Positions 6,666-16,510 of a DNA stretch of 33,189 bases are shown here, in pieces. This DNA comes from Methylophilaceae bacterium (GTDB taxonomy: Bacteria > Pseudomonadota > Gammaproteobacteria > Burkholderiales > Methylophilaceae): positions 1 through 33,189 of the forward strand of contig JANNBX010000006.1 in the NCBI GenBank assembly GCA_031385945.1, in the 5' to 3' direction. Numbering within the stretch: the stretch's first letter is position 1; each line of letters begins with the position of its first letter. The notes beneath the pieces were generated by a model, which was not told the DNA's origin, ran no database searches, and saw only the letters and a program-made list of their open reading frames with translations. A program made the position numbers and the translations under genes.

Positions 6666-8370
6666 AATTGTACAAAGGCAATATGATACAACAGCCGCCG
6701 CCAGCTTAGTCGAAAATGGTGTAAATGCAGTGCTTGCCAAAGTATTAAGCGCACGTGGTATTGTTGAAAAATCGCAACTTGAAAGCCACTTAAGCAATCT
6801 ACTGACGCCAGACAGCCTTACGAATAATGCGCAAATGGCGGTGTTACTGGCTGATGCCATTGCGGCGAATAAAAGCATTTTGATTATTGGCGATTACGAT
6901 GCAGATGGCGCCACAGCGACTGCCGTGGCGATGAAAGGCTTGAAGGTTTTTGGTGCCAAGGTTGATTTTTTAGTGCCAAATCGCTTTGAATACGGCTATG
7001 GCTTAACGCCTGAAATCGTTGATTTAGCCGCTACGCTACAGCCCGATATAATCATCACTGTGGATAATGGTATTGCCAGTATTGAAGGCGTTTTGCGCGC
7101 TAATCAATTGGGTATTCAAGTGCTGATTACCGACCACCATTTACCAGCGGAAACTACGCCTGCCGCCACTTGTATTATTAACCCCAATCAACACGGCTGT
7201 AACTTTAAAAGTAAAAACCTAGCAGGCGTAGGCGTGATGTTTTACTGCTTGCTGGCCTTACGTATTGAGCTACGCTCACGCGGTGCGTTTGATAGTAAGC
7301 CAGAGCCAAACTTGAGTAGTCTGTTAGATTTAGTCGCCCTTGGCACCGTGGCAGATTTAGTGCGCCTAGACGATAATAACCGCATCTTAGTTGAGCAAGG
7401 GTTGCAGCGTATTCGTGCAGGAAAATGCTCTGCAGGCATTACCGCATTGCTAAATATTGCAGGTCGTAGCCCACAACATGTGACAGCTCAAGACTTAGGT
7501 TTTTACGTAGGGCCAAGGCTCAACGCGGCTGGCAGACTAGATGATATGCGGCTAGGTATTCAATGTTTGCTCGCTGAAACAGAGCATGAAGCCAACACAT
7601 TAGCCCAAGAATTACACGACTTAAACGCTGAGCGCCGCAATATTGAAGCCGACATGCAAGACGGCGCGATGTTAGCGCTAGATAATTTAGACATTAAAGA
7701 CCAATACACCATCAGCATTTATCAAGCTGACTGGCATCAAGGTGTGATTGGCATTTTAGCCTCACGCATTAAAGAGCAGTTTCACCGCCCTGTGATTGTG
7801 TTTGCTGATGCGAACAATGGTGTTTTAAAGGGCTCTGGCCGCTCAATACCAGGCTTTCATCTGCGCGATGCGCTAGATTTAGTGACCAAACGCAAGTCTA
7901 ATTTGATACAAAAATTTGGTGGCCATGCCATGGCGGCTGGTTTAACCATTAGCCAAAATGACTTTGCTGAATTTCAAACAGCTTTTGAATCAGTTGCCAG
8001 GGAGCTGCTCAACGAAGCTGATTTAACAGCCGTGATTGCGACAGATGGCTCAATTTCTAGCACAGACATGACACTTGAAACTGCACAAATATTAGAAACA
8101 CAAGTGTGGGGGCAAGGCTTTGCTGAGCCTTTGTTTTACGACACGTTTAAGGTGGTAAGCCAAAAATTGTTGGGCGAAAAGCACTTAAAATTGCTGCTAA
8201 AAAAAGATGACCTGCAAAAAAATCAAACACAATTTGATGCCATATTTTTTAAGCAAACTGAGTTTCTGCCCGATGTCGTCAGTTTGGTATATCAATTTCA
8301 AACCAATACCTTCAGAGGCTTGCAAACGCTACAACTCATGGTGAAATATGCCGAAAATGCCAACCCATAA
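6658..8370 (+). CDS. recJ: Single-stranded-DNA-specific exonuclease RecJ.
   Basis: 570 aa with DHH motifs 'IIGDYDADGATATAV' and 'ITDHH' and a DHHA1 region 'GGHAMAAG'. Confidence 0.9.
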   Translation: MTEIVQRQYDTTAAASLVENGVNAVLAKVLSARGIVEKSQLESHLSNLLTPDSLTNNAQMAVLLADAIAANKSILIIGDYDADGATATAVAMKGLKVFGAKVDFLVPNRFEYGYGLTPEIVDLAATLQPDIIITVDNGIASIEGVLRANQLGIQVLITDHHLPAETTPAATCIINPNQHGCNFKSKNLAGVGVMFYCLLALRIELRSRGAFDSKPEPNLSSLLDLVALGTVADLVRLDDNNRILVEQGLQRIRAGKCSAGITALLNIAGRSPQHVTAQDLGFYVGPRLNAAGRLDDMRLGIQCLLAETEHEANTLAQELHDLNAERRNIEADMQDGAMLALDNLDIKDQYTISIYQADWHQGVIGILASRIKEQFHRPVIVFADANNGVLKGSGRSIPGFHLRDALDLVTKRKSNLIQKFGGHAMAAGLTISQNDFAEFQTAFESVARELLNEADLTAVIATDGSISSTDMTLETAQILETQVWGQGFAEPLFYDTFKVVSQKLLGEKHLKLLLKKDDLQKNQTQFDAIFFKQTEFLPDVVSLVYQFQTNTFRGLQTLQLMVKYAENANP

Positions 8371-8755
8371 AACGCTTAAATTAGTAGCTCGCTGGTTTGT
8401 ATTCACTTGGTTTTTTATCGGCGGCATCGCGCATTTCGCATACCCTGAGCCATTTTTACGGATTATGCCGCCGTATGTTCCATTTCATTTGGCTTGTGTT
8501 TATATCAGTGGTTTTTTTGAATTGCTGGGTGCGCTTGGCTTATGGGTTAAGCCGGTAGGCGGGCTTTATATAAGAGAGTTGGCGGGTTATGGTTTGATGC
8601 TGCTCACCGCTATTGTCACACTGGCCAATATACAAATGTTCCAGCATCCTGAGCTGTTTCCAAGCATTCCTTACTGGGTGTTGGTCATTCGCTTCCCCGT
8701 GCAGGGATTGCTGATTTGGCTGATTTGGTGGGCTTCACGCGAAGACACTACATAA
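8348..8755 (+). CDS. Small polytopic membrane protein (DoxX-like).
   Basis: 135 aa with 3-4 hydrophobic helices ('WFVFTWFFIGGIAHF', 'ISGFFELLGALGLW'). The family assignment is tentative. Confidence 0.4.
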   Translation: MPKMPTHKTLKLVARWFVFTWFFIGGIAHFAYPEPFLRIMPPYVPFHLACVYISGFFELLGALGLWVKPVGGLYIRELAGYGLMLLTAIVTLANIQMFQHPELFPSIPYWVLVIRFPVQGLLIWLIWWASREDTT

Positions 8756-8771
8756 ACCCACCAGTCAATAC

Positions 8772-11857
<3,086 letters not shown>

Positions 11858-12109
11858 TTAATGATTTTTATAAGTGATTATTATTTAATCGTATCTACAT
11901 TGATTATAGACGATAGCAGTAATTTTTTAAGGTCAGGTGAAAACTTTTAAAAAGACATAAGAACTTGTGGAAAACCAGCACATTTAAAGCAGTTGATGAT
12001 GTACCAACATTCAGTAATTAAAAAAGGGATTTAGTGATTGAAGCTGAAATTAAGCGATTGAAGCTGAGACTAGGTATTTAAAGGCAGGATAAGGCGGTTA
12101 AATACAGGA

Positions 12110-12901
12110 TTACGCGATTATTTCTTGCTCTTGTAGCTGTCGTAAAATACCTTCGCCAAAAGTGATTAAGGCTTGTGTATCTGCCTGACTTTCCATAACT
12201 GCTTGGCTAGCTGGGTCTTGTTTGTTGGCAGTTGTAGCTAAATTAACGCTGAGTTGTGTGAGCGCCTCAACACCTGTGTGTGGTTTATCTTTTAAAATAT
12301 GGAGTAGCTGAGCGGTGAGTTCATTTAGCTCAACAAATTGCACTTTAAATGCAGCGTTACGATATACCACCAAAAATATTGGCTGACTTAATGGTGCTGT
12401 GGGCTTATTTTTTGCAGATATTTGATGTACCGCAAAGTGGTATTTCACAAGCGCTATACTTGGGTTAACAACAATTTTTTGTGTCATTAAATCATGATTT
12501 TTAGGACTATTTTCACCACCAAAAGGAGCTGTTTGCATGCTGCTGACAGCCAGCTCTAGCCACTCGTAGTGCGCTAAACTGGTTAGGTAAACGGGTAAAT
12601 TTGGCTGTGTCGTTAAATAATTAAAAAAGGTTTTTGGAATATCTCTAAATAGTGGGCTTTGGCTAGGATAATGTGCAAAAAAATCGCGTACAAGCTTGCG
12701 CCAAGCGCGCTTGCCAAGTACCAATTGTAAAACTGGATAACAGGCTGAGACGCTAGAAAATATATTATTGAAAACAATTTCTGTATAAACCGCCATACGT
12801 TTTTTATCAACTTTAGCAGGTGCTTTATGATGTTTTGGATCACGTATATGCGCACAAAAAGCTTGTTGATATGCCTGAAAACTAGGGTGCTCTAATGCCA
12901 T
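12110..12901 (-). CDS. DUF2063 family protein (HvfC/BufC-like MNIO partner, putative precursor-binding/DNA-binding domain).
   Basis: The N-terminal 'FQAYQQAFCAHIRDP...RMAVYTEIVFNNI...YPSQSPLFRD' matches the DUF2063 signature. The start ATG lies 2 nt after the DUF692 stop. Confidence 0.75.
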   Translation of the reverse strand: MALEHPSFQAYQQAFCAHIRDPKHHKAPAKVDKKRMAVYTEIVFNNIFSSVSACYPVLQLVLGKRAWRKLVRDFFAHYPSQSPLFRDIPKTFFNYLTTQPNLPVYLTSLAHYEWLELAVSSMQTAPFGGENSPKNHDLMTQKIVVNPSIALVKYHFAVHQISAKNKPTAPLSQPIFLVVYRNAAFKVQFVELNELTAQLLHILKDKPHTGVEALTQLSVNLATTANKQDPASQAVMESQADTQALITFGEGILRQLQEQEIIA

Positions 12902-12903
12902 GA

Positions 12904-13815
12904 TTAAGCGCTTGCGAGTAATGGTTGAATGGCTTGATATTGACGTTGTAACACTGCTATTTGATTGATTTCATGCATTAAAATTGGTAAAGCAGGAATA
13001 TTAGTATCACGCTCTAATAAAGTAGGGAAAACACCATAAAGTTGATAGGCTTCTTCTAGCAATGCCCAAACCTCGGGCACAACATCCTGTGCGTGCGTAT
13101 CAATAATTAAGTTATCTGCCTCACGATCATGCCCAGCAATATGTGCATAAACAATACGCTCACCAGGAACACCGCGCAAAAATACGTGTGGGTCAAAACC
13201 AAAATTCACACTATTCACATAAATATTATTGATATCTAAATGCAAGTCACAATCTGCCTCACTCAATACCGCATTTAAAAAAGTTAGCTCATCCATGCTA
13301 GAAATAGGCGCTTCCGCATAGTAAGAAGTATTTTCAATAGCAATTCGTCGCTCTAGCGTGTCTTGTACTTGCTTAATGCGGTTAGCCACATAAAACACGG
13401 CTTCTTCTGTAAACGGTATGGGCAGTAAATCATGCATATAGCTCGGTTTACCTAAGTTTAAGTCACTGCAGTAACTCAGATGCTCAGTGTAGAGCACGAT
13501 TTTATGCTGGTTTAAAAAGCTTTTTACTTGCTGTAAAAAAAACGTATTCAGTGGGTCTGGCCCACCGAGAGATAATGATAAGCCGTGACAGGTAAGTGGG
13601 AAGCGTTCGGCAAGCCAAGCAATTTGAACTGCTTGTTTACCGCCCGCTTCTATCCAGTTTTCTGGTGCAATTTCTAAAAAACTAACATGCTCAATTAAAT
13701 CACTTTCAAATGCAGCTTGCAGCGGAGCAATTAACTCGCGCTTTAAGCCAAAGCCTGCACCTTTTAGCAGAGCCACATTTTTTGAGGCCGAATGAGTTTG
13801 ATTAGTTAGCACCAT
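12904..13815 (-). CDS. DUF692 multinuclear non-heme iron oxidative enzyme (MNIO; MbnB/HvfB/BufB-like).
   Basis: The N-terminal 'GAGFGLKRELI' and a TIM-barrel xylose-isomerase-like 'HLDINNIYVNSVNFGFDP' region are typical of DUF692. It sits between a Cys-motif precursor and DUF2063. Confidence 0.85.
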   Translation of the reverse strand: MVLTNQTHSASKNVALLKGAGFGLKRELIAPLQAAFESDLIEHVSFLEIAPENWIEAGGKQAVQIAWLAERFPLTCHGLSLSLGGPDPLNTFFLQQVKSFLNQHKIVLYTEHLSYCSDLNLGKPSYMHDLLPIPFTEEAVFYVANRIKQVQDTLERRIAIENTSYYAEAPISSMDELTFLNAVLSEADCDLHLDINNIYVNSVNFGFDPHVFLRGVPGERIVYAHIAGHDREADNLIIDTHAQDVVPEVWALLEEAYQLYGVFPTLLERDTNIPALPILMHEINQIAVLQRQYQAIQPLLASA

Positions 13816-13846
13816 TTATTGGCTATTCAATTATCTAGCAATTCAG

Positions 13847-14173
13847 TTATTTTTTGTCTGAATGGCAAGAGCCTTCTTTCATTTTGTCGGCTTTCATTTC
13901 ACCATGGCATGAGCCTTCTTTCATTTTGTCGCCCATTTTTTCACTTCCGCATGATGCTTCGGCGCCTTTTTCCATTTTTTCAGATTTAGCTGCGCCACAT
14001 TTACCAGTGCCACATTTGCCGTCTTTCATATCTTTGGCGTCTGCTACCATATAGCCTGATGTAAGTGCTTTTAATGCAAATGGATTAGTTGCTGCTGAAA
14101 CTTGCGTAGTGGCAATAGATGCAACAAAAGCGCCGCCAATAGCCAATGCAATAGCTGTTTTAGATGTGTTCAT
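13847..14173 (-). CDS. Exported Cys-motif precursor peptide (HvfA/bufferin-like MNIO substrate) with Met/Lys/His-rich tandem repeats.
   Basis: I refined the start to the ATG at 14173, with an AAGGAG RBS 7 nt upstream. The Sec signal peptide is 'MNTSKTAIALAIGGAFVASIATTQVSA'. The mature region 'DGKCGTGKCG...EASCGSEKMGDKMKEGSCHGEMKADKMKEGSCHSDKK' has 5 Cys in G/S-C-G/H motifs. It lies immediately upstream of DUF692. Confidence 0.7.
   Translation of the reverse strand: MNTSKTAIALAIGGAFVASIATTQVSAATNPFALKALTSGYMVADAKDMKDGKCGTGKCGAAKSEKMEKGAEASCGSEKMGDKMKEGSCHGEMKADKMKEGSCHSDKK
13865..13950. repeat. 42-nt tandem direct repeat inside the precursor gene, encoding 'KMKEGSCH' units.
   Basis: 'gagccttctttcattttgtcg' recurs at about 13870 and 13911. 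The protein shows KMKEGSCH-GEMKAD-KMKEGSCH. Confidence 0.75.
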
Positions 14174-14292
14174 GTGAAACTCCTTAAGATATATTAGATT
14201 TGATAACTCAAAAATCAGTTGCCTGTTAACGTCATTACTTGCAGTTATACGCATTCAATATTGAGTTAGATTCAACTAGCTTCGTTTTGAGA

Positions 14293-14547
14293 CTAAACCG
14301 TATTTGACTGATTGATTGCTTGAGTTACTTTATCGTGTACCGATTGCGGTAGGCGTATTTGATTATCTGATTCAATCGCTGTAGTCGTTTTACGTACACT
14401 TTTTTGTATCAACTTAAGTTGATTAGCAAAACGTGCACAAAATTTACAAATCATCAAATGTAGTTTAAGTGAGCATTTTTCACTAAACGTTAATCGACGA
14501 TCTAAATTGTGAGATAGCAACTGGCTGGCTTGTTTGCAACTTAACAT
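14293..14547 (-). CDS. Small soluble zf-HC2 (ChrR-like zinc-binding) anti-sigma factor.
   Basis: The 'H-LMI-C-KF-C' H-x3-C-x2-C motif plus further Cys residues, and no TM helix. The ATG at 14547 lies 1 nt after the sigma stop TAG. The tracked ORF begins at a TTG at 14559. Confidence 0.6.
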   Translation of the reverse strand: MLSCKQASQLLSHNLDRRLTFSEKCSLKLHLMICKFCARFANQLKLIQKSVRKTTTAIESDNQIRLPQSVHDKVTQAINQSNTV

Positions 14548-14548
14548 A

Positions 14549-15130
14549 CTATTTTTCAACCTCCAGCCAATGAATTTCTAAACATTTACGTAACCCCATT
14601 CGAGCGCGATATAGCATCACCCAAGCATTGGTCGTGGTGATGTCTAGTTCCTTACAAATAGTTTCGTTATCTTCTTCAATCACTTCACGCAGCATAAATA
14701 AAGCGGCTAATTTTTTAGGTAGTTTATCCATACAACTCTGTAATACACCTAAAAATTGCTTTTGTTCCAGCTCACCTTCTGGCGCATTCCAGCCCATCGG
14801 TGCGTCTATCCAATGGCCTTCATCATCAAAAAAGTCGTCTGCACCAGCTGTATCTGGAATATTTTCTTCATATACTAAAGCAGTGGTTTTCACTTGCACA
14901 CGCATCACATCAATAATTTTATGTTTCAAAATACCAGTCAGCCAGGTGCGTGGGCTAGACTGCTCAGCAAAGCTGGGACTTTTAATAGCGGCTAAGAACG
15001 TTTCTTGCACCACGTCTTCTGCTTGATGTGGGTCGCGTAAACGCGCTAGGGCAAAGCGATATAGATAGTCCCCGTGCTCGTTGAGCCAGTCATGGGCGCT
15101 AGCATTTGCAGCTTTATTAGTAGTGTTCAT
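14549..15130 (-). CDS. ECF-subfamily RNA polymerase sigma-70 factor.
   Basis: 193 aa. Region 2 'DVVQETFLAAIK' and the region 4 helix-turn-helix 'NAWVMLYRARMGLRKCL' are characteristic of ECF sigma factors. Confidence 0.8.
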   Translation of the reverse strand: MNTTNKAANASAHDWLNEHGDYLYRFALARLRDPHQAEDVVQETFLAAIKSPSFAEQSSPRTWLTGILKHKIIDVMRVQVKTTALVYEENIPDTAGADDFFDDEGHWIDAPMGWNAPEGELEQKQFLGVLQSCMDKLPKKLAALFMLREVIEEDNETICKELDITTTNAWVMLYRARMGLRKCLEIHWLEVEK

Positions 15131-15195
15131 AGGCGTATTGAAGCATAAAAATTAGGTTATTGCACCCCGCCTATTATATTGGCATGACAGTTCAC

Positions 15196-15630
15196 TCAGG
15201 TCGCTTTACTGTGCATACAAGCTAGGTAAGCGACTGCATCTGGTTGGTTATTTGTGCGCTGCGCTTGCCAAATAGTTTCTGCTAAACAATCCATTAAGTC
15301 ATGTTGCGCGAGCATGGCGTCTTGATGCTTAATTAACAGCGCTTGATAATGCCCTGCAATACCAATAGGCTGGTTAATTTGTACTTGCTCTAAAATAGAT
15401 AAATGTAGACTCATGTGCAAAAATGGATTGGTTTCACCCATCTCAGGGTAATAAGCTTGGCCGCGATATTTTTCAGGCTGGTTCAGTACTGTGTGATATT
15501 CCGCGTGCATGATCATCACTTCCACTGCAATTTTCTCAAGCGGCGTGAGGTCGGTTTGTGCGTTGAATTTAGCCCATGCGTCAAAGAAAAAGTCGCGTAC
15601 TTCGTCACGGCTAGGGTTAAATAATGCCAT
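15196..15630 (-). CDS. DUF1841-like hypothetical protein.
   Basis: The 'MALFNPSRDEVRDFFFDAWAKF' N-terminus recalls DUF1841. The start ATG lies 1 nt after the upstream gene's stop. Confidence 0.4.
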   Translation of the reverse strand: MALFNPSRDEVRDFFFDAWAKFNAQTDLTPLEKIAVEVMIMHAEYHTVLNQPEKYRGQAYYPEMGETNPFLHMSLHLSILEQVQINQPIGIAGHYQALLIKHQDAMLAQHDLMDCLAETIWQAQRTNNQPDAVAYLACMHSKAT

Positions 15631-15631
15631 A

Positions 15632-16510
15632 TCAATGCGCCTTAAAGAGTGCTAATACGCTAGTATTACTGCGTATAACGCAGGGTTTATTGCTGTCAAG
15701 CGATGGAACAATTTGGCCGTTACCTAAAAAACCTAACATTGGTAAATTACCGTAAATACTGTGAATCATCTTTAGTTTTTCATCCATTAAGGGTCTGGCT
15801 AACTTGGCAGATGTCTGCGTGCAAAAAGATAAGTCTGAAAGTGGTGAAAAGAGTAGTGCAAAGTCAGCTGATGCATGACTTGAATATTCTGCCGGGTGCG
15901 AGTCAAAAGCAAAGCTTGATTTTGAATCAGCACTAGAGTCAGTTGCAGAACTCAAATGAGATACAGGACTTAGATCAGTATTTGAGCTGGGTAATTGCAT
16001 GTTTTGCAAACTCACTTCAACACCAGTCATGGCTTTTTGTAAGTATGATTCTGGCGCACCTTTACCGTTTTTCCAAACGGTATAACTACCAAAACCAGTT
16101 GCATCGCCCGCCACCGCTCCAAAACGCATGCCTTGTTGCGTCATCCAAGAAGTATTAAGCGCGTGTGGCGCGGTAATGGTTAATATAGGTTGATTGGGCA
16201 GATTATCTGCAGGAATTGCCCACTGTAAGCTATCATCAATCACCAATACTGCAACGCCTGCGGCGTCAGTTACCCAATCTTCTTCAGTAAAAATACAAGG
16301 CGCCATACAACCAATAATTTGTGTAGTTTGTGCTGCAGCAGCAGCGGCTTGAATAGTGGCTGGTAGGTCTTTTGCAAAGTCAGGTGTTAACAATAAAATA
16401 ACACTGTTTGCACTGACTAAATTAGCGCGCGCTAATGCTGCTTGTATTGTTTTTTTAACCAAATCAGGTGTGGCAGTATGGCTAATACCGATGCTGCTAG
16501 CTACTTTCAT
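15632..16510 (-). CDS. Hypothetical protein (FIST-like?) with a Ser-rich linker, translationally coupled to nth.
   Basis: 292 aa. Its ATG overlaps the nth stop (ATGA). The N-terminal 'ASSIGISHTATPDLVKKTIQAAL' and C-terminal 'GFLGNGQI' weakly resemble FIST N/C domains. The central S/D/A-rich low-complexity segment is unusual. Confidence 0.35.
   Translation of the reverse strand: MKVASSIGISHTATPDLVKKTIQAALARANLVSANSVILLLTPDFAKDLPATIQAAAAAAQTTQIIGCMAPCIFTEEDWVTDAAGVAVLVIDDSLQWAIPADNLPNQPILTITAPHALNTSWMTQQGMRFGAVAGDATGFGSYTVWKNGKGAPESYLQKAMTGVEVSLQNMQLPSSNTDLSPVSHLSSATDSSADSKSSFAFDSHPAEYSSHASADFALLFSPLSDLSFCTQTSAKLARPLMDEKLKMIHSIYGNLPMLGFLGNGQIVPSLDSNKPCVIRSNTSVLALFKAH

Follow-up and report, generated by a model that had tools for sequence, protein, structure and literature searches.

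An Hvf/oxazolin-type precursor peptide of Methylophilaceae in which single-cysteine units form the repeat core

What kind of peptide is encoded when a canonical pair of copper-peptide cysteine motifs is followed by a long tail rich in lysine and methionine, and are the cysteines of such a tail modified like those of the pair? This question is raised by a small gene in the contig JANNBX010000006.1 of a Methylophilaceae bacterium (assembly GCA_031385945.1), positions 1 to 33,189 of which, referred to here as the window, were analyzed. The gene lies on the reverse strand at 13847..14173 and encodes 108 amino acids plus a stop. Its open reading frame (ORF), translation, and homologues identify it as a precursor gene of the HvfA/Buf_EGKCG type, a class of ribosomally made peptides with posttranslational modifications (RiPPs). 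We consider it likely that its product is the precursor of an Hvf/oxazolin-type metallophore that is modified by a multinuclear nonheme iron-dependent oxidase (MNIO) with its partner HvfC, exported, binds copper, and is controlled by an extracytoplasmic function (ECF) sigma factor.

The translation of 14173..13847 (-) is MNTSKTAIALAIGGAFVASIATTQVSAATNPFALKALTSGYMVADAKDMKDGKCGTGKCGAAKSEKMEKGAEASCGSEKMGDKMKEGSCHGEMKADKMKEGSCHSDKK, followed by a stop, and is segmented as MNTSKTAIALAIGGAFVASIATTQVSA/ATNPFALKALTSGYMVADAKDMK-DGKCGTGKCG-AAKSEKMEKGA-EASCG-SEKMGDKMK-EGSCH-GEMKADKMK-EGSCH-SDKK (the slash marks the end of the predicted signal peptide). Residues 1 to 27 (14093..14173 (-)) have, by direct reading, the n/h/c organization of a putative Sec signal peptide (MNTSK, a hydrophobic core, and VSA/A); the AlphaFold2 (AF2) model places a helix at residues 4 to 26, and the family alignment shows this stretch to be conserved. 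The conserved leader NPFALKALTSGYMVAD follows at residues 30 to 45 (14039..14086 (-)), with N30, P31, F32, L37, G40, Y41, and A44 invariant in family alignment A1, and is presumably the region recognized by HvfC and its RiPP recognition element (RRE). Residues 51 to 60 (13994..14023 (-)) form DGKCGTGKCG, the single canonical Lys-Cys 5-mer pair, in which G-2 and K-1 are 99% and 98% conserved. The tail (residues 61 to 108; 13850..13993 (-)) is resolved by the family logo into a linker, the single-cysteine units EASCG, EGSCH, and EGSCH, and a C-terminal SDKK. The precursor contains five cysteines (C54, C59, C75, C89, and C103); the canonical pair, the three S-C-G/H sites, and the five cysteines listed in an earlier note on this DNA are all present. 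The same note counted about eight methionines in roughly 80 residues, but the mature peptide of 81 residues has seven (residues 42, 49, 67, 80, 84, 93, and 98), and eight is reached only with the initiator. Their comparison to classical Cu(I) motifs did not stand, as only Mx3M and Mx4M spacings occur, and direct reading of the precursor found no MxM or MxxM motif of the CusF, PcoC, or CopA type.

The start of the gene is supported by a Shine-Dalgarno sequence (AAGGAG) 7 nt 5' of the ATG and by the family alignment, in which the homologues begin at MNTSK. An in-frame ATG at 14254 yields a spurious ORF of 135 amino acids that includes the region 14174-14254 (-), and some public gene calls (P0270, 149 amino acids) take the equivalent upstream start, which buries the signal peptide. 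A Pfam scan of the precursor gave no match, DUF2282 included. The AF2 model has a mean predicted local distance difference test (pLDDT) score of 45, with less than 50 in the core, and thus predicts a disordered core.

A word-indexed protein search returned 314 relatives of the precursor, and a one-genome-per-species scan confirmed at least 235 loci. The 80 loci listed from that scan are mostly from Methylophilaceae (Methylotenera, Methylovorus, Methylophilus, and Pseudomethylobacillus), and a few are metagenome-assembled genomes (MAGs) labeled only beta proteobacterium, Burkholderiales, or Pseudomonadota. The subfamily has a common layout of a signal peptide, the leader NPFA.K.L.SGY.VAD, one pair (D/E)GKCG-TGKC(G/S), a Lys-rich linker, and usually four repeated units with the consensus D-K-A-K-E-G-S-C-[S/H/G/N]-A-D-K. 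The logo of these tail units over more than 100 proteins shows K-6 at 95%, E-3 at 91%, G-2 at 87%, and S-1 at 66%, with Ser (47%), His (22%), or Gly (22%) at +1, and Cys-His is the commonest ending of the final unit (44%). Six cysteines are the mode (80/112 proteins and 46/76 species-level loci). The window precursor departs from this pattern by having five cysteines, Met instead of Ala at -5 (A 63% and M 16% in the family), and units of 14 residues against 10 in the consensus, the difference being a 4-residue (G/A)DKM-like insertion that occurs singly in P0002, P0008, and P0015. It is also among the 3 most Met-rich of 112 proteins. The earlier note regarded the tail as an atypical extension fused to the GKCG motifs. 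Because more than 300 relatives share the one-pair-plus-units architecture, the KMKEGSCH tail is, judging from these sequences, the normal repeat core of the clade, continuous with EGKCG repeats, and not a fusion. One MAG, Methylotenera sp. PB2.3.53, carries two precursor loci (L021 and L038, on PERG01000003 and PERG01000004), which may represent a duplication or a mixed bin.

The relationship to canonical precursors was seen in a search with a profile of 27 members against 1.84 billion representatives, which gave 1470 matches at E<=1e-3 and 399 at E<=1e-10. The distant matches have canonical EGKCGEGKCG repeats together with the same leader, NPF....L.SGY.VA. Intermediates were also found, with single EGKCG or EGSCG decapeptides or Met-rich DKMKEGSCG or MKDGKCG units (P0145, P0212, P0233, and P0265), and the E-G-S-C-[S/H/G] repeats grade continuously into canonical EGKCG repeats. 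The HvfA domain model NF050137 (KCGExKCG_twice) matches 26 of the 27 family members at E<=1, the best at 3e-08, and the HvfA equivalog model aligns to residues 9 to 94 of the window precursor. Some relatives scored against the model Decapeptide (PF25296) at 25 bits versus a cut-off of 45, which we dismissed as a low-complexity coincidence. The Buf_EGKCG/oxazolin family was defined by Antoine et al. 2025 (PMC12452194). In Table S2 of that paper, one Buf_EGKCG protein is listed for Methylotenera mobilis, WP_015832903.1, with an accession adjacent to those of MNIO and DUF2063 proteins; on the strength of this table entry, rather than of the protein's sequence, the subfamily appears to be already catalogued. 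The available text of PMC12452194 contains no description of the one-pair-plus-decapeptide E-G-S-C-[S/H] architecture, and the strings EGSCH and EGSCS do not occur in the available supplement text of two survey papers. The precursor is thus an Hvf/oxazolin RiPP of the Lys-Cys class, also called captophorin, with a motif variant (E-G-S-C-[S/H] single units and a Phe-less MNIO, as described below) that appears to be catalogued but is sparsely described.

All genes of the operon are on the reverse strand, in the order ECF sigma factor, anti-sigma factor, precursor, MNIO (HvfB), and HvfC. The MNIO (DUF692) maturase of the HvfB family at 12904..13815 (-) scores 379.8 bits with NF003818 (cut-off 360) and matches PF05114 at E=3.9e-96 and the Histophilus somni MNIO structure 3BWW at E=6.8e-71. 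The HvfC partner at 12110..12901 (-), with a DUF2063 N-terminal domain and NGO1945_C, scores 247.6 with NF050145 (cut-off 142) and matches PF09836 and PF22106. The position of the gene directly upstream of these two enzymes bears out the earlier description of an HvfA/bufferin-style precursor. The gene order is near-invariant among 84 loci, with the sigma factor in 81, the anti-sigma factor in 83, the MNIO in 82, and HvfC in 76, and most of the missing genes fall in loci that are short or truncated. The conserved synteny in about 80 loci, the HvfB and HvfC cut-offs passed, and the homology to canonical precursors together indicate that the precursor is the MNIO substrate.

Two other explanations of the ORF were considered at this point. 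It could be an uncharacterized low-complexity periplasmic protein that is syntenic with MNIO genes and not their substrate. Database names are compatible with this, since relatives are called uncharacterized low-complexity protein by the Joint Genome Institute (JGI) and hypothetical protein by the Prokaryotic Genome Annotation Pipeline (PGAP; WP_331020060.1, the one PGAP-named relative seen), and a distant, Met-rich relative with DKMKEGSCG repeats, P0145 (L095:466-798), has no MNIO or HvfC gene in 3.8 kb of flanking sequence. P0145 may be an orphan precursor. In about 80 loci the gene without exception directly precedes the MNIO gene, the homology reaches experimentally proven HvfA-type precursors, and precursor and enzyme pocket co-vary, which makes a nonsubstrate protein very improbable. 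The second explanation, that the Met/Lys/His-rich tail is a functionless frameshifted or decaying remnant of a recent duplication, draws on the low complexity of the sequence and the instability of its 42-nt units, and we give it a slightly smaller chance still. The earlier note would have been contradicted by homologues in which this region was frameshifted or degenerate. In the alignment with four close relatives (five sequences), all indels are multiples of 3 and the sequences retain the C-terminal ...SC(H)xDKK-stop, so a frameshifted or degenerate tail is excluded; the unit logo is, moreover, strongly conserved over more than 100 proteins.

The chemistry expected for such a substrate is known from related systems. 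HvfBC modifies all six cysteines in the three AEGKCGEGKCG motifs of HvfA, with a loss of 4 Da each, and modified HvfA binds approximately one Cu(I) for every two converted cysteines (PMC11252979). The oxazolone/thioamide chemistry first assigned to HvfA no longer applies, because both groups have revised the assignment to 5-thiooxazole (bioRxiv 10.64898/2026.06.05.730506; PMC12668002). HvfA, FonA, and NgoA carry 5-thiooxazoles and bind Cu, and a copper-sequestration role was proposed by the authors of the reassignment (same two sources).

Whether the tail cysteines are substrates as well was examined from the sites and from the enzyme. The tail sites keep the frame of the proven ones: E-3 and G-2 are present in 91% and 87% of the tail units, compared with 96% E/D (E 78%, D 18%) and 88% G in distant canonical sites, and the two kinds of site differ only at -1 (Ser for Lys) and +1 (Ser or His for Gly). 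In the characterized enzyme FonBC, position 3 of the substrate tolerates Ala, Arg, and Thr, and position 5 only Gly and Ala. In an AlphaFold model, FonB Phe250, the neighbor of catalytic residue Asp249, lies against positions 3 and 5 of the substrate, and Arg15 and Arg16 lie against the substrate Glu (PMC12668002). These positions were mapped onto other MNIOs in FonB numbering by motif position (R15/R16 in the MNIO of locus L090). The structure 3BWW has G.G.RR and ERD-F, and the L090 MNIO, whose partner precursor has EGKCGEGKCG four times, has R15-R16 and ERD-F. Instead of this canonical RR/ERDF signature, the window MNIO has KR (GLKRE) and ERDT, and all 81 of 81 Methylophilaceae MNIOs have KR and ERD-[N/T/S/L/I], with Phe in none. 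Two further loci have a leader and a gene neighborhood unlike those of the Methylophilaceae loci: the L093 MNIO, the partner of P0228 with KEGSCSADKK repeats, keeps RR and has ERD-S, and the L094 MNIO, the partner of P0170 with six DAKCSADKK repeats, keeps RR and has ERD-L. Locus L091 was too short to include the ERD motif. The L094 locus itself (L094:1223-4954) contains DoxX, an ECF sigma factor, an anti-sigma factor, two tandem precursors, the MNIO, and HvfC, one of the tandem precursors carrying EHKCG/DGKCGEGKCG and the other the six DAKCSADKK units.

A residue other than Gly after Cys therefore accompanies loss of the MNIO Phe in three settings, and this co-occurrence supports the Cys-Ser and Cys-His sites as genuine substrates of an adapted pocket. 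Because E-3 and G-2 are kept and the partner MNIOs lack the Phe, the tail cysteines, too, are probably converted, which under the revised chemistry would give 5-thiooxazoles. A more tentative extension, which we would not expect to hold in full, is that replacing the Phe that follows the catalytic Asp acts as a natural switch of specificity for installing thiooxazoles at Cys-Ser and Cys-His, that His-adjacent sites with Met at -5 give altered metal affinity or selectivity, and that gains and losses of 30- or 42-nt units tune the number of cysteines.

Several observations weigh against these interpretations. FonBC wants Gly or Ala after Cys and, in vitro, required two adjacent repeats (PMC12668002), so on this analogy the spaced single EGSCH sites might go unprocessed. 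The co-variation of enzyme and substrate was seen in a small number of independent lineages, and inside the clade it is loose. There, the residue after the catalytic Asp tends to be Ser with Cys-Gly sites and Thr with Cys-His sites, a trend that is phylogenetically confounded and gives weak support, and that has counterexamples in L014 (Thr) and L015 (Ser), which share the same precursor, and in L088. The window precursor scores 18.7 bits with NF050137, just below the cut-off of 19.5, and no DoxX gene was found in the hvf-like operon.

The strongest competing explanation is that only the two KCG cysteines are converted, and the tail Cys, His, and Met residues serve as unmodified metal ligands or form disulfides, which would make the product a hybrid of a RiPP and a metallothionein-like peptide. 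The limits of FonBC just described speak for it; HvfA, too, has two unmodified N-terminal cysteines that form a disulfide (PMC11252979), and the tail is unusually Met-rich for its family, since 6 of 64 core residues are Met and the family averages 3.6%. On the other hand, the E-G-x-C frame of proven sites is conserved in the tail units, the Phe that limits +1 to small residues is systematically missing from the partner MNIOs, single EG[K/S]CG units at 10-residue spacing are common in the wider family, and three tail cysteines cannot all be disulfide-paired. We regard conversion of the KCG pair alone as unlikely, although clearly less remote than the two explanations of the ORF dealt with above, and prefer the reading in which the MNIO acts on the pair and probably on the tail.

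In the mechanism that we propose, the peptide would be made with a Sec signal peptide and the leader NPF..L.SGY.VAD, and the leader would be recognized by HvfC. In the cytoplasm, the MNIO-HvfC pair would then oxidize the cysteines of (D/E/T)-G-x-C-x motifs to 5-thiooxazoles, those of the KCG pair and probably the three tail sites. The disordered, Lys-rich product would be exported via Sec to the periplasm, where the thiolate and N ligands of the thiooxazoles would bind copper and so sequester or detoxify it. Side chains of His and Met may add to the ligands, with Met at -5 or His at +1 as candidate extra ligands, and Cys followed by His may, as the earlier note proposed, alter the heterocycle that is formed. 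Expression would probably be driven by the adjacent pair of ECF sigma factor and zinc-binding anti-sigma (ZAS) factor. In this lineage, the 10-residue DKAKEGSC[S/H/G] units would have been stretched to 14 residues, and the 42-nt units encoding them would be gained or lost by recombination or slippage.

The tandem DNA duplication of 42 nt noted earlier was recovered by Tandem Repeats Finder (TRF), which called a period of 42 nt, 2.0 copies, and 85% matches at 13862-13944. Unit 1 (SEKMGDKMKEGSCH; 13904..13945 (-)) and unit 2 (GEMKADKMKEGSCH; 13862..13903 (-)) are identical at 35/42 nt, and six of the seven differences alter an amino acid. The exact 21-mer GAGCCTTCTTTCATTTTGTCG is present twice, and the last two Cys sites (both EGSCH) fall inside the repeat. 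At eight of the nine residues shared by the units that have synonymous choices, the same codon is used, and the chance of those eight codon pairs matching under the codon usage of the window is approximately 0.009.

A close relative shows the unit as a copy-number difference. The metagenomic contig L092 (L092:440-1259 against window 13780-14560) is approximately 95% identical over 780 nt, and pairwise DNA alignment revealed an exact 42-nt indel, by which L092 has one more unit and six cysteines versus five. The L092 precursor reads EASCG / SEKMGDKMK-EGSCH / GEMKADKMK-DGACG / SEKMGDKMK-EGSCH / SDKK. Unit 2 of the window is a chimera of the 5' half of L092 unit 2 and the 3' half of L092 unit 3, joined within the shared stretch GA(C/T)AAAATGAAAGA. 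Because L092 unit 2 is no longer the same as unit 3 of that contig and six cysteines are the family mode, the window lineage most likely lost one unit relative to L092, via slippage or unequal recombination. In another 90% cluster, P0003 (111 amino acids) and P0271 (121 amino acids) are one 10-residue unit apart, whereas in the P0014 90% cluster (16 members) all 15 listed proteins have 118 amino acids. Repeat number therefore varies between close relatives, as the earlier note expected, but its further suggestion of hypervariability is not borne out by the uniform P0014 cluster and the six-Cys mode in 46/76 loci.

Comparison with characterized systems places the window operon close to HvfA/oxazolin of nontypeable Haemophilus influenzae (PMC11252979). 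The two share a Sec signal peptide, a leader, C-terminal Cys repeats, a precursor gene directly upstream of an HvfB-family MNIO and HvfC, and the same (D/E)GKCG-xGKCG pair. They differ in that HvfA has three AEGKCGEGKCG pairs (six modified cysteines), an N-terminal disulfide Cys pair, and a DoxX gene, whereas in the window peptide a single pair is followed by three spaced units of one Cys each, which have Ser at -1 and Gly or His at +1; the peptide also lacks the N-terminal pair, and has no DoxX gene in its operon. Unlike hvfABC, the window operon includes an ECF sigma/anti-sigma pair, and its MNIO has KR/ERD-T versus RR/ERD-F. Fontiphorin (FonABC) and gonophorin (NgoABC) are likewise similar, with an MNIO and PME1 (DUF2063/RRE), E-G-x-C-x 5-mers, and expected Cu-binding 5-thiooxazoles (PMC12668002), but FonBC prefers Gly or Ala after Cys, and in the present subfamily the tail Cys is mostly followed by Ser or His and the enzyme lacks the contacting Phe. 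The Buf_EGKCG proteins of PMC12452194 include 17-residue double-EGKCG repeats, modeled as beta-helices, and EF-hand fusions, in contrast to one pair and spaced single units here. Bufferins (Buf1 with DUF2282, Buf2 with 6/12 Cys) and methanobactin also contain copper-ligand heterocycles derived from Cys by an MNIO. Identity with either was rejected: the precursor has no DUF2282 match and the MNIO scores 257.7 with the BufB model (cut-off 310), and for methanobactin the MNIO scores 28.7 with the MbnB model (cut-off 325), there is no MbnC, and the precursor has a signal peptide.

The regulatory genes lie upstream of the precursor. The ECF sigma-70 family factor at 14549..15130 (-) scores 200.1 with TIGR02943 (cut-off 162.2) and has Sigma70_r2 and r4_2 domains. 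The small ZAS-type anti-sigma factor at 14293..14559 (-) scores 66.1 with NF052368 (cut-off 50) and 20 bits with zf-HC2; its TTG start overlaps the stop of the sigma gene. The protein has 84 to 88 amino acids and no obvious membrane segment was seen in it, and its H-x3-C-x2-C motif (HLMICKFC) suggests that it senses thiols, redox state, or metal in the cytoplasm. In Neisseria, MseR is reportedly also a small ZAS-type anti-sigma factor, with DUF692 and DUF2063 genes in the same operon. Between the anti-sigma gene and the precursor, approximately 75 nt 5' of the precursor ATG, is a candidate ECF-type promoter, TGAATCTAA-N-CGTA(TA), at 14248..14274 (-). This motif, TGAATCTAACTCAATATTGAATGCGTA, resembles an ECF-type -35/-10 pair and may function as a promoter; it is the sole match in the 33-kb window and occurs at 10/10 positions in 14/72 orthologous upstream regions, compared with 0/1440 shuffles. 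Neisseria sigma-E and its anti-sigma factor MseR correspond to NMB2144/NMB2145, according to the available part of PMC2893595. A scan for sigma-70 promoters and terminators gave site numbers not above those of shuffled sequences, and an Rfam search of 12000-16000 gave only a subthreshold SAM-II match (E=0.49). An attenuator in the precursor-MNIO intergenic region was dropped as a candidate, with no significant hairpin (z = -1.66).

Other neighboring genes were also recorded. A DoxX_2-like ORF at 8348..8755 (+) (PF13564, 27.3 versus a cut-off of 26.3) lies behind recJ and convergent with pgm, 3.4 kb from the operon, and the same recJ/DoxX_2-like/pgm arrangement is found in L089; DoxX genes often accompany such clusters, but this one is outside the hvf-like operon. 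An SPFH/Band-7 (flotillin-like) gene at 10430-11857 (-) separates hvfC from pgm, and it represents an insertion or a loss, because in the close relative L089 pgm directly adjoins hvfC. Immediately upstream of the sigma gene are a DUF1841 gene and a FIST-like gene (15196-16510 (-)), present in 75/84 and 66/84 loci, respectively (L002-L084), and absent from L093 and L094. These two are probably clade synteny (rnf-nth-FIST-DUF1841) and not part of the system.

About half of the reference genomes of Pseudomonadota contain Hvf/captophorin clusters (PMC12668002), and the window precursor by itself adds little to what is known of its kind. The HvfA domain model narrowly misses it, and the relative WP_331020060.1 is called a hypothetical protein. 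The subfamily provides a large natural set of substrates with Ser or His after Cys, paired with Phe-less MNIOs, from which a hypothesis for site selectivity can be drawn. In addition, the in-frame change in copy number of a Cys-bearing repeat between near-identical strains, with five versus six cysteines, is a natural experiment on ligand number.

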